Source: an uncultured Muribaculaceae bacterium (GTDB lineage Bacteria; Bacteroidota; Bacteroidia; Bacteroidales; Muribaculaceae). From it: a DNA stretch of 64,000 nucleotides. Numbering within the stretch: position 1 is the first letter of the stretch; every line of letters begins with the position of its first letter. Of the stretch, positions 52,953 to 58,174 are shown one piece after another. The translations under genes were made by a program, and so were the position numbers. The stretch lies in the NCBI GenBank assembly GCA_947090195.1, contig CAMUND010000001.1, positions 12,236 through 76,235 of the forward strand. Reading direction: 5' to 3'. The notes beneath the pieces were generated by a model, which was not told the DNA's origin, did no database searches, and worked only from the letters and a program-made list of their open reading frames with translations.

Positions 52953-54686
52953 ATGAACAATCTAAGAATATTGGTCACGCTGTGTGTGGTTTTTATTTCG
53001 ATGGCGCGTTTTGGTGCGGTTGCTGACCACCGGGTTGATTCCATAAGGAGTGCGCTGCCGACGCTGAATGGCGATGAACGGCTGGATGCTCTCAGCAATC
53101 TTGCCCACATGGCACATGCCGGCGATGACATGGAGTATGAAATAAGGTGTATACATGATTATCTTGACGAAGCCCGTAGGCAAAACGCCATAGATGCCGA
53201 GGGGGATGCCTCCGTTGCTCTGCTATATTGTTTCGACAATTACGAGCAGCCTGACAGCATAAAGCATTATCTTCCCTTGATTCTTCAGCGGATGAAGGAC
53301 AACGGAAGCCCTGACTACTATTATAATTGCTGGGATGCATCGATACAGCATGACATTTTCCATAACAAACCGGAATCGGCACTCCGTGAAGCGCACAAGA
53401 TGTACGATGATGCCCGTGAGGCTGGCTCAAACTATGGACTGGGCGTGGCGGCGTTCGACATAGGGATGATATCACAGAGCATGGGGCGTTCGGAGGAAGC
53501 AGTGAAGTCATTTGAGGAAAGCATAAGCAGGCTGTCAAGTGAAGGTGACATAACGGTGTTTTTGTCGGCTTACAATCATCTCACTTCAAGCCTTGACGCG
53601 CTGGGACGTTACGATGAAATGCGCAAGAAGGCGCAGGACTGGAAAAAAGTGATTGATGACTATCTGGAGAAGGCTTATGCGCAGGGATATATACCGGAAT
53701 TTGGTGGTCGGCGTATGTACAACACCCTTGCTTTCTGTCTTGCTGAAATGGGAAGCGGCAATCTGGAAAAGGCCGGTGAATACTTGCGGAAGGCACAGAA
53801 GTATGCCGCAGGTCGTTCGGCATCGACTCAATACCGTCTTATGCAAGTGGAAAGCCGCTACTATGACGCTGCCGGAATGTATGACAAGGCTATTGACACT
53901 GACCATAGAAACCTTGAACTGATAGAGAGCGTGGGTGATTCGGTAAGTGCGGCTACAGTGAGAACTCACTTGGCAGAGGTGCTTTTCAAGGCAGGACGTT
54001 TTAAAGAAGCGGCTGAGACGATGCGTGAGCTTTCGGAGATGAAAGATAAAATCAGGAATGAGGAGCTTGCCTATAGGCTCGACGAGCTGCGCACTATCTA
54101 TGAGGTCGACTCTCTCACCGTAAAAGCTGATGCCGCTCATGCCAAGTTGTTTTATTCCATCGTGATTCTGGCGTTGCTTTTACTTGCCTTGGCTATCCTG
54201 CTTGTGTACCAGCATAGCCTGAGAAAGAAGAACCGTGTGCTATATAATGCCATACAGAAAATCAATCGCGCCGAATACAAGTCGAAAGAAACCGCTCCTT
54301 CGACGGATGAGCCTTCTCCGGCTTCCGCTGACAGAGATGAGGAGATATATCAAAAGGTATGCTTGCTTATGACTAACGATCAAGTGTACAAAGACCCTTC
54401 TCTTAACCGGGAAGCTCTGTCCAACGCGATCGGCTCCAACACCCTCTATCTGTCCAATGCTATAAAGCAGCACACCGGTTTAACGATAAATGATTTTATA
54501 AATGACTATCGTCTTCGCCATGCTGCGGTGCTCCTGGCTGCTAATCCGTCGATGACTATCGGGGAGGTGGAAACGCGGTCGGGATTCAATTCACGCAACA
54601 CATTCACTCGTTTGTTTAGAGGAAAATACGGAATGTCGCCGTCAGAATACAAGCGGCTGTCACGTGAACAAGACGCTAACCGCTAA
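52953..54686 (+). CDS. Membrane-anchored TPR-AraC transcriptional regulator
   Basis: Signal peptide, helical TPR periplasmic region, TM (SIVILALLLLALAILLVY), C-terminal AraC HTH (INDYRLRHAA...SGFNSRNTFTRLFRGKYGMSPSEY). Confidence 0.85.
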   Translation: MNNLRILVTLCVVFISMARFGAVADHRVDSIRSALPTLNGDERLDALSNLAHMAHAGDDMEYEIRCIHDYLDEARRQNAIDAEGDASVALLYCFDNYEQPDSIKHYLPLILQRMKDNGSPDYYYNCWDASIQHDIFHNKPESALREAHKMYDDAREAGSNYGLGVAAFDIGMISQSMGRSEEAVKSFEESISRLSSEGDITVFLSAYNHLTSSLDALGRYDEMRKKAQDWKKVIDDYLEKAYAQGYIPEFGGRRMYNTLAFCLAEMGSGNLEKAGEYLRKAQKYAAGRSASTQYRLMQVESRYYDAAGMYDKAIDTDHRNLELIESVGDSVSAATVRTHLAEVLFKAGRFKEAAETMRELSEMKDKIRNEELAYRLDELRTIYEVDSLTVKADAAHAKLFYSIVILALLLLALAILLVYQHSLRKKNRVLYNAIQKINRAEYKSKETAPSTDEPSPASADRDEEIYQKVCLLMTNDQVYKDPSLNREALSNAIGSNTLYLSNAIKQHTGLTINDFINDYRLRHAAVLLAANPSMTIGEVETRSGFNSRNTFTRLFRGKYGMSPSEYKRLSREQDANR

Positions 54687-54747
54687 CAGTTTACGTTTTT
54701 GACATGCTTTTTTCCGGATTTGGGACATGGAGTGCCGTTATGTAGGG

Positions 54748-54755
54748 TATCTTTG
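54748..54755 (+). promoter_or_regulatory. Bacteroidetes -7 box for the PI-PLC genes
   Basis: TATCTTTG 43 bp upstream of ATG 54798. Confidence 0.6.
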
Positions 54756-56450: not shown

Positions 56451-56500
56451 AGAAATGCATATTAACTAACTTTGAGCCTGAACTATAAACAAAAACAGAA

Positions 56501-58174
56501 ATGAAACTCAAATTTACTTATTTACTTTTTATCACCGCAGCCCTCTTTGGCTGCGTTATCGGGCTACAGGGCTGTTCCGATGACAATGATGACCCCTCGC
56601 CAAGCTCGGGAGAAATAAATTTTACACATACCTCGACCCGGGGATACTTTACTGGTTATACCATAACAGTCGATTCCGATAAAGGACCCAAGAAAGGGGA
56701 GAAGCACCGCTCAAGCAACAATTTTTCCACCAGCTTTCTTGCGTCGAGCTCCAGGGGGGCGCCGCAGTTCATGTTGGTGTATTGTCCCGACGACAATGTG
56801 AGATTTAAGCTTCAAATAGACAAATCGGGCAAAGATGAGGTGTGGAACGACGATGTGTACAACGGCGCCATTCTTCCTTACCGCAATGAGAGCAATTTCT
56901 ATATCGCTGACCCTTCAGGAGCCACAGGTTCATTCTGCGTAATGTTCAAGGCGTTCTACCCTGATGACGGCTATCTATTCGTAAGTTCGCCGGGACGGCA
57001 CTTATCGGGACAGAGCCGCCGTGCCAGTCTTGACTTTGTGCTTCCTTCCACTTCGGCGAGATACAAGGTAAGAATATCCGACCCTTCGGTGTCCTTCGGA
57101 ATATACGAAGGTAAGAGTCATGTGGCTCTAAAAGTTAAAGACGGTGACTTCATCAATTTATCCAATAGCAAGCACAACTATTACCTCACCGATCCCGAAG
57201 CCACATCGAAAACTTTCCATGTGAGATTTGAGCCGGCAAACGAAGCATGGATGGAAAAAATTCCCGATAATCGAGGCATCGAATTTTTATCAATTCCCGG
57301 AACCCACGATACCGGCACTTATGCCCTTGAACCCGTAAACTTCGGGTACTCCAAATGTCAGAACATGAACATTACACAACAGCTGCAATTCGGTATCCGT
57401 TATATGGATCTGCGCATTAATGGGTCGATGAATCTGGAGCATGGGGGTATACCATGCAATGTGTCTTTCCACGAGACTGTAAGCGCCACATGTGATTTCC
57501 TCAAAAAGAATCCCTCGGAAACAGTTATTTTTGAACTCTCGGGACCCTCTGATTTCGGCAAAAAATTTGACGATTATCGCAAAAATAATCCGGATCTTGC
57601 ATCATATTTTTGGCTCGGTAATTATATGCCCATGCTTAGTGAAGTACGCGGTAAAATCATGGTTGTGCGCCGTTACGACTATGACGGTGTACAAGGACTC
57701 GACTTCAATTCCGAAGGAATATGGCCTTACGACTCCTCCACAAGGGGTTCAAACCCTGACAACGTTCATTACTATATAGAGGATCGCTACTTCAGTGCGA
57801 GTTCAGCACAAAGCCACGACACACACGTCAAAAGATCCGAGTTGTATGCAGCCATAGATTACAGATTGAATTACAACGGATGGTTCTGTATAGCTTTCTC
57901 GAGCGTGTCGGCAAGCGTGTCGCATACACCGTACATGTTTATGTGGGGTGGCGGTTTTCCCGGAGTCAATCCCACAATGAGTGATGCTATTGTCGAGAAA
58001 TTCAATACATTGCCGGCAGGTCGGAACTGCGTAGGTGTCATTGTAATGGATTACTACAACAACAACGGACACGATGACCGTGCCCATATAACCGAACGAA
58101 TCATAAATTCTAACTTTAGTACCGCTGCGGAAGCACCTTATCCTCTCGACCGCTTACACAGTGATCACGATTAA
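56501..58174 (+). CDS. PI-PLC X-domain surface lipoprotein 2 (paralog) with two N-terminal unnamed repeats
   Basis: Lipobox LQGC plus SDDNDD; SIPGTHDT, QLQFGIRYMDLRI, LEHGG, VRGKIMVVRR, GVIVMDY. Confidence 0.85.
   Translation: MKLKFTYLLFITAALFGCVIGLQGCSDDNDDPSPSSGEINFTHTSTRGYFTGYTITVDSDKGPKKGEKHRSSNNFSTSFLASSSRGAPQFMLVYCPDDNVRFKLQIDKSGKDEVWNDDVYNGAILPYRNESNFYIADPSGATGSFCVMFKAFYPDDGYLFVSSPGRHLSGQSRRASLDFVLPSTSARYKVRISDPSVSFGIYEGKSHVALKVKDGDFINLSNSKHNYYLTDPEATSKTFHVRFEPANEAWMEKIPDNRGIEFLSIPGTHDTGTYALEPVNFGYSKCQNMNITQQLQFGIRYMDLRINGSMNLEHGGIPCNVSFHETVSATCDFLKKNPSETVIFELSGPSDFGKKFDDYRKNNPDLASYFWLGNYMPMLSEVRGKIMVVRRYDYDGVQGLDFNSEGIWPYDSSTRGSNPDNVHYYIEDRYFSASSAQSHDTHVKRSELYAAIDYRLNYNGWFCIAFSSVSASVSHTPYMFMWGGGFPGVNPTMSDAIVEKFNTLPAGRNCVGVIVMDYYNNNGHDDRAHITERIINSNFSTAAEAPYPLDRLHSDHD

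Follow-up and report, generated by a model that had tools for sequence, protein, structure and literature searches.

A putative regulated, surface-displayed inositol-lipid phospholipase C locus in an uncultured Muribaculaceae bacterium

Introduction

Does a Bacteroidales bacterium carry a regulated system that degrades inositol lipids outside the cell? This question is raised by a locus in a window of 64,000 nucleotides from an uncultured Muribaculaceae bacterium (GenBank assembly GCA_947090195.1, contig CAMUND010000001.1, positions 12,236 to 76,235 of the forward strand), in which the list of open reading frames (ORFs) places three co-directional genes at 52953-58174. The first encodes a membrane regulator with tetratricopeptide repeats (TPRs) and an AraC-type helix-turn-helix (HTH), and the other two encode lipoproteins, here called PLC-A and PLC-B, that resemble phosphatidylinositol-specific phospholipases C (PI-PLCs). 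Inositol sphingolipids and phosphatidylinositol (PI) are made by gut Bacteroidales, which release them in vesicles. Full-text literature searches brought up neither a Bacteroidales PI-PLC nor any other enzyme that breaks down these lipids outside the cell. A regulated surface PI-PLC would be a concrete, directly assayable candidate for such degradation. An initial annotation of the window had read the three genes as a module in which a ligand-sensing regulator deploys two surface phospholipases carrying novel domains. In the present analysis the PI-PLC lipoproteins, the novel domain and a credible link to the regulator stood, and the idea of a conserved three-gene module fell. On balance, we consider it probable that the locus encodes surface-displayed phospholipases C that act on inositol lipids and are regulated as a unit.

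Results

Both lipoproteins carry a PI-PLC barrel. Pfam PI-PLC-X (PF00388) matches PLC-A at 35.2 bits and PLC-B at 28.2 bits (gathering cut-off 23.1), and the best matches in the PDB by phmmer, at 4.6e-20 and 4.6e-21, respectively, are Bacillus/Listeria PI-PLCs, with chains from Bacillus, Staphylococcus and Listeria matched at 1e-13 to 1e-21. The fold was tested on an AlphaFold model of PLC-A (pLDDT 86.8, pTM 0.82), which in Foldseek matched 24 PI-PLC entries, including 1PTD, 3V18 and 1AOD, with E-values down to 6e-18 and TM-scores of 0.72-0.78, normalised to the target. The PI-PLC X fold expected at the outset is thus supported by both profile and structure searches. Equivalents of His32, Asp33, Asp67, Arg69, His82, Arg163, Asp198 and Asp274, which together form the active-site and inositol-binding set of Bacillus PI-PLC (His32 and His82 as general base and acid, Arg163 and Asp198 as inositol-binding residues), are invariant in 20/20 family sequences. 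The motif IPGTHD carries the equivalents of His32/Asp33, D(I/L)R those of Asp67/Arg69 and LCHN/LEHG that of His82, so that the catalytic set first noticed in these three motifs is real, and the Arg163, Asp198 and Asp274 equivalents are present too. In addition, a conserved aromatic rim loop, TPWDYAW, aligns with the W242/Tyr-strip loop of the Bacillus enzyme. As far as sequence can tell, both enzymes hold the full known requirement for metal-independent PI-PLC chemistry, and they are predicted to be active. PI-PLC catalytic domains that stand alone, with about 35-39% identity to the PLC-A barrel (L035-L096), are very common in gut Collinsella genomes, and such domains occur too in Chryseobacterium, Flavobacterium and Shewanella.

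The N-termini point to the cell surface. As the initial annotation had noted, acidic residues follow the lipobox Cys in both proteins: SDSDSDE in PLC-A, and SDDNDD in PLC-B, where the lipobox is Cys25 (LQGC). The lipobox Cys is invariant in all family members and acidic residues come after it in each. SusG requires a CS(D/E)2 export signal to reach the surface and to be loaded into vesicles (PMC6222051), and CSDDNDD of PLC-B matches this signal exactly. Surface or vesicle display is hence the expected location of PLC-A and PLC-B.

The regulator combines a sensor-like region with a DNA-binding one. Its C-terminus holds a double HTH (Pfam HTH_18 9e-18 and HTH_AraC 1e-8, residues 489-568), TPR units lie between residues 140 and 365 (TPR_12 6e-12), and hydropathy reveals two hydrophobic segments, a signal/anchor at residues 4-25 and one strong transmembrane (TM) segment within residues 392-424, with SLRKKNR C-terminal to it. 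Given the topology implied by the anchor, the TM segment and SLRKKNR, the TPR array is predicted to be periplasmic and the HTH cytoplasmic. The public gene call starts at 52929 and gives a protein of 585 residues. These domains and segments, and the ORFs themselves, agree with the signal-TPR-TM-AraC regulator followed by two lipoproteins described initially. Orthologues with 66%, 51% and 49% identity were found in the sister species L007, in genome G011 and at locus L099, respectively, and members of the family are frequent among Bacteroidales (Hoylesella oralis, Bacteroides heparinolyticus and metagenome-assembled genomes of Prevotellaceae; 40-66% identity), with orthologous regulators preceding unrelated cargo. 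The literature yielded no experimental study of any member of this TPR-AraC family.

A candidate operator lies between the regulator and PLC-A. It consists of TTTMCNNWTTTRR twice, 21-22 bp from start to start, and its proximal core TGGGACAT begins 27 bp ahead of the PLC-A -7 box. The exact dimer has a single occurrence in the 2.69-Mb genome, and Markov controls gave 0. Two of 31 genus genomes contain the dimer, each directly 3' of the regulator gene; these are the two with the regulator, and the 29 genomes without the regulator do not have it. The dimer is conserved upstream of PLC-A in L007 and adjoins the orthologous regulators in L007, G011 and L099/L100. In G011 it precedes two unrelated lipoproteins with acidic signals, and at L099 the repeat is upstream of the regulator gene itself, with the PLC gene following 59 bp after the regulator without a -7 box. 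At seven loci (the window and six others), two cores TG(A/G)N(A/G)CA(Y) are 21 bp apart and the proximal core starts 26-27 bp before the TAnnTTTG -7 box of the downstream gene, whatever that gene is; this geometry extends to the more distant regulators of H. oralis, B. heparinolyticus and L105. The tandem-repeat operator beside a target promoter that is expected of AraC/XylS regulators is thus represented by the candidate site at 54690-54723.

The repeat accompanies the regulator with unrelated cargo in G011, L103, L104 and L105 and is missing where a PLC locus has no such regulator, and for this reason the regulator most likely activates PLC-A. Adjacency alone would be weak evidence for such a link, because most loci of the PLC family lack the regulator. 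The link becomes credible through the tandem repeat by PLC-A, through the geometry shared with distant regulators, and through L099/L100, whose flanks are unrelated and where a PLC from another clade stands directly downstream of the 49%-identical regulator. The functional connection suggested by the initial annotation is therefore backed by a conserved operator-like repeat at a fixed distance from the PLC-A promoter. The regulator could instead be a mere neighbour, the PLC genes being constitutive or controlled elsewhere and the repeat an ordinary promoter element, as the separate -7 box of each gene and the many family members without such a regulator would allow. However, the repeat tracks the regulator rather than the cargo and is missing from the regulator-less PLC loci and the 29 regulator-less genus genomes, and we regard this alternative as quite unlikely.

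With up to 3 mismatches allowed, a genome-wide search turned up no other convincing operator that would indicate a wider regulon. A near-operator tandem repeat, TTTACGCATTTGT-N8-TTTACGTATTTGT, is present in the host genome (G000, contig C20:24068-24101, minus strand) and is possibly bound by a paralogous regulator. In G011, on the minus strand at 6764-9711 of L016 (G011:C4), the orthologous regulator (51%) and operator are followed by lipoproteins of 544 and 427 residues with acidic post-Cys signals and no Pfam match, and a patatin-like phospholipase of 781 residues is encoded three genes beyond them. At L105, a long array of ~200-bp repeats (units beginning GGAACGCAGATA) occupies 7740-8620, between a related regulator and its operator with type IX secretion system (T9SS) cargo.

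The two enzymes have separate histories. Compared over the full length, PLC-A and PLC-B share 34% identity (E 2e-80), in line with the diverged paralogues of the initial annotation, and they fall in different well-supported clades of a maximum-likelihood tree. They are old paralogues, since these clades are separate; a recent tandem duplication was considered and rejected on the same grounds and because the nearest relative of PLC-B is 56% identical to it. No regulator or operator was seen at the nearest relatives of PLC-B, whose contigs are short or cut. The full-length architecture is rare: a set of 5.8 billion proteins yields ~20 clusters (90% identity), and it occurs in five other species genomes out of 185,579 (Porphyromonadaceae, Parabacteroides, Bacteroidaceae, Prevotellaceae and Muribaculaceae), those with a recorded origin being gut metagenomes. 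A full-length homologue was found in 0/24 other same-genus genomes searched, two of which gave weak partial PI-PLC matches.

The sister species L007 shows how the locus varies. Its flanks are equivalent and its regulator and PLC-A are 66% and 79% identical to those of the window, and after PLC-A there is a terminator, followed by a protein with a T9SS tail and an Lcl_C protein in the place of PLC-B. Homology between the window and L007 ends ~40 bp past the PLC-A stop and resumes at the end of the GNAT gene, and PLC-B therefore sits in a variable slot. A conserved three-gene module, as first supposed, does not survive this synteny survey: PLC-B is absent from the sister species, the two PLCs belong to separate clades, the regulator stands at 3 of ~11 PLC loci with readable flanks, and orthologous regulators precede unrelated cargo. 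In L007, the 5' leader of PLC-A (~7950-7975) and that of the following T9SS-tail gene (~9745-9770) both contain the 21-nt segment TAAATCAGTTCAAAGTTAAAC, and this repetition hints at recombination at the variable slot.

Each barrel is preceded by a domain without a name. Residues 41-238 of PLC-A form two β-sandwiches of 7-8 strands and ~100 residues each (model pLDDT 88.7), which hhalign identifies as homologues (99.6%, E 1e-24) and which have the motifs GQxHRSSxNF and LYIA(D/N)PxGA in common. Profile searches found no relatives in Pfam, NCBIfam or the PDB, Pfam giving a sub-threshold PPC match, and a Foldseek search of the PDB with the two-repeat model gave generic tandem β-sandwich matches with TM-scores of 0.34 or less; the N-terminal domains had rightly been called novel. 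A profile search of 1.84 billion representatives placed the domain in 365 proteins, 173 of them at E ≤1e-10, and most of the matches of at least 240 residues also have a PI-PLC barrel, preceded or followed by one, two or four copies of the domain. Other proteins combine the domain with the Ca-dependent PI-PLC-C1 domain (P0049, P0055 and P0133, the last being 3H4W-like at E 8e-9), with Metallophos (P0072, P0096), with an EEP phosphoesterase (P0132) or with a subtilase (P0093); PDB and NCBIfam searches gave no specific enzyme name for the Metallophos and EEP partner proteins. In the host genome the domain is confined to PLC-A and PLC-B.

That several unrelated phosphoesterase folds have recruited this domain suggests a targeting module directed toward the membrane or a headgroup. 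A different role would follow if the barrels acted on non-lipid inositol-phosphate or other phosphodiester polymers, such as capsule or glycan linkages, with the N-terminal domains as carbohydrate-binding modules. The generic β-sandwich with its weak PPC match would suit that role, and trace inositol has been reported in the capsule of B. thetaiotaomicron (PMC9246714). Conservation of the aromatic interfacial rim loop and the presence of two separate PI-PLC families among the partners of the domain speak for lipid instead, and we consider a polymer substrate very improbable.

The features of the locus are collected in Table 1. The PLC-A to PLC-B gap measures 50 bp and holds no terminator, the first one downstream being that at 58234. 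A sigma-70 promoter scan gave nothing above chance, as expected for Bacteroidetes. Upstream of the regulator lies a divergent Crp-like gene, and downstream of PLC-B a convergent GNAT gene on the minus strand, in agreement with the initial observation that no SusC/D or immunity-like gene is adjacent. ORFs and Pfam revealed no SusC/SusD pair within the PLC unit, as would characterise a polysaccharide utilization locus (PUL), and no ORF in 52700-58300 corresponds to a small immunity gene or a secretion-system marker, as would characterise a toxin-immunity locus. A conserved divergent pairing of Crp and regulator was rejected because the Crp-like neighbour here is unrelated to the one in G011. Upstream of the GNAT gene, a 102-residue remnant of an AMP-binding (adenylation) gene remains in the window (58763-59071, minus strand); in L007 this gene is intact at the equivalent place (479 residues, 12446-13885).

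Table 1. Features of the regulator-PLC locus, in window coordinates
Feature	Position	Strand	Description
-7 box TATATTTG	52910..52917	+	Bacteroidetes-type; 5' of regulator gene; matches TAnnTTTG
Regulator gene	52953..54686	+	Signal/anchor, predicted periplasmic TPR, TM helix, predicted cytoplasmic AraC-type HTH; possible earlier start 52929
Candidate operator, tandem direct repeat TTTACGTTTTTGA / TTTCCGGATTTGG	54690..54723	+	Between regulator stop and PLC-A -7 box
-7 box TATCTTTG of PLC-A promoter	54748..54755	+	TAnnTTTG match; kept in L007 as TACCTTTG
PLC-A lipoprotein gene	54798..56450	+	550 residues
PLC-A signal peptide, lipobox Cys22 (FSAC) and SDSDSDE	54798-54884	+	Lipobox/acidic motif
PLC-A repeat 1	54918-55229	+	β-sandwich
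PLC-A repeat 2	55230-55511	+	β-sandwich
PLC-A catalytic barrel	55512-56450	+	H258, D259, D289, R291, H300, R376, D416, D515
-7-like box TAACTTTG	56467..56474	+	27 bp ahead of PLC-B start
PLC-B lipoprotein gene	56501..58174	+	557 residues
PLC-B two N-terminal repeats	about 56657-57244	+	Homologous N-terminal domain
PLC-B catalytic barrel	about 57245-58174	+	H269, D270, D303, R305, H314, R390, D428, D517
Terminator hairpin, 13 pairs, strong	58234..58265	.	Bidirectional; closes PLC unit and serves convergent GNAT gene too

Discussion

Taken as a regulated phospholipase C unit, the locus could work as follows. The regulator would be a one-polypeptide membrane sensor, with a periplasmic TPR array joined by one TM helix to a cytoplasmic AraC-type HTH. 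On a periplasmic cue it most likely binds the two direct repeats, whose span overlaps the PLC-A promoter in its upstream part, and would then activate PLC-A transcription. PLC-B is probably transcribed by read-through, given the short gap and the lack of a terminator before 58234, and also from its own weak -7-like box at 56467. Both proteins would leave the cytoplasm through Sec and receive their lipid at Cys22 and Cys25, respectively, and their acidic post-Cys signals most likely direct them to the cell surface and outer-membrane vesicles. There, the C-terminal barrels are expected to follow the two-His, metal-independent chemistry of Bacillus PI-PLC: the inositol 2-OH would attack the phosphodiester of an inositol phospholipid and so release inositol 1,2-cyclic phosphate together with diacylglycerol or ceramide. 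The two N-terminal β-sandwich repeats probably serve as a spacer and as the membrane- or headgroup-targeting module. The likeliest substrates are exogenous inositol lipids of the gut lumen, namely PI, the inositol-phosphoceramide of other Bacteroidales or of diet and fungi, and possibly glycosylphosphatidylinositol (GPI) anchors.

Several observations weigh against this reading. Most PLC family members are without the regulator, which was found at 3 of ~11 family loci with readable flanks, and no operator-like repeat is present upstream of PLC-B. The sites that the operator pattern matches were already known when it was drawn up, and a reversed-pattern control gave 2 chance matches elsewhere in the 31 genus genomes; the argument for the operator thus rests on position and geometry, not on counts. 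The PLC-A signal CSDSDSDE is acid-rich but interrupted and is not a strict CSDD. Furthermore, the membrane-anchor region around Trp47 in helix B of the Bacillus enzyme is shortened and aligns to a gap in the window enzymes, so that interfacial binding may differ from that of Bacillus PI-PLC.

The sequence offers no way to tell PI, ceramide-based inositol lipids and GPI apart as substrates. On the same contig, about 8-12 kb ahead of the window start (G000, contig C1:1-4518, locus L108), there is an inositol-lipid synthesis cluster of MIPS, a HAD hydrolase, a CDP-alcohol phosphatidyltransferase, an unknown protein of 287 residues and an NTP transferase, in which MIPS is cut by the contig end and continues on contig C109. 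This content fits the "alternative" inositol-lipid cluster known from Prevotella and B. vulgatus (Heaver et al. 2022, PMC9246714), a study that makes no mention of a phospholipase C, and because of this match the host bacterium probably makes inositol lipids itself. Inositol-phosphoceramide is a major lipid of B. thetaiotaomicron vesicles (PMC8791184). Given the bacterium's own synthesis cluster and this vesicle lipid, inositol lipids of microbial origin are plentiful where the enzymes would act, and as substrates they are no less plausible than host lipids or GPI anchors.

The same two facts would also suit a rival reading in which exogenous lipid is not the target and the enzymes turn over or remodel the inositol lipids of the producer, whether they face the periplasm or work on its outer membrane and vesicles. 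The acidic export signals predict an outward orientation, however, and the absence of a full-length homologue from the 24 other same-genus genomes searched makes a housekeeping role unlikely; we accordingly give own-lipid turnover a small chance. A further alternative, which takes up the host targets named in the initial annotation, is that the main role is the release of host GPI-anchored proteins or damage to host membranes. Bacillus PI-PLC, which is among the closest solved relatives, cleaves GPI anchors, and the family members come from gut-associated genomes. Listeria PlcA is an equally close relative but a poor GPI-cleaving enzyme, the sequence favours neither GPI, PI nor ceramide-based substrates, and the family is rare and patchy, without any adhesin or toxin context. 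A main role against host GPI anchors or membranes therefore appears unlikely as well.

The phospholipase C unit can be taken one step further, as a tentative and rather doubtful proposal. The N-terminal domain would be an inositol-lipid- or membrane-targeting module recruited by unrelated phosphoesterases, and the PLCs would cleave inositol-phosphoceramide and PI shed in vesicles by other Bacteroidales. If this were true, PLCs on the surface or on vesicles, acting on Bacteroidales-shed lipids, would amount to regulated inter-bacterial lipid scavenging or antagonism and not to host attack. Four different phosphoesterase folds are found together with the domain, which makes it worth a structure as a possible general lipid-targeting module. 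In addition, the candidate operator, with its two cores 21 bp apart and 27 bp before the -7 box, is a testable DNA target, and the membrane-spanning TPR-AraC regulators to which it belongs form a widespread family found in front of variable secreted cargo in Bacteroidales.

Comparison with known systems

The regulator resembles SusR-like and ToxR/CadC-like one-component activators, in which sensor and DNA-binding domain are likewise part of one membrane-spanning polypeptide. It differs from these in that its sensor is a TPR array and the cargo of its family is variable, and from ToxR in its opposite topology, with the HTH at the C-terminus. With the AraC/XylS activators that bind tandem direct repeats it shares promoter-adjacent repeats with a period of two helical turns. 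The lipoprotein signals, with a lipobox Cys followed by acidic residues, are like those of SusG-type Bacteroides surface lipoproteins (PMC6222051), which are also hydrolases, and a hydrolase on the surface or on vesicles would be expected here too; the cargo, however, is a phospholipase C rather than a glycosidase, and there is neither a PUL nor a SusC/D partner.

The closest enzymatic counterparts are the PI-PLCs of Bacillus cereus/thuringiensis (1PTD, 3EA1), Staphylococcus aureus (3V18) and Listeria (PlcA, 1AOD), with which the window enzymes have the (βα) barrel, the eight residues and the aromatic rim loop in common. As in these Bacillus/Listeria-type enzymes, the Ca-binding signature of PI-PLC-C1 is absent. 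The window enzymes are of the Ca-independent PI-PLC-X type, unlike the Ca-dependent PI-PLC1 of Streptomyces antibioticus (3H4W; PI-PLC-C1), whose type of catalytic domain is carried by some proteins with the N-terminal domain (P0133). Known Firmicutes PI-PLCs are soluble secreted proteins of ~300 residues, whereas the barrel described here is the C-terminal half of a 550-residue Bacteroidales lipoprotein, 20-25% identical to them, preceded by two copies of the unnamed domain, shortened in the helix-B Trp region and distinguished by the family-specific motifs SKCQN, HDTKEK and TPWDYAWGG.

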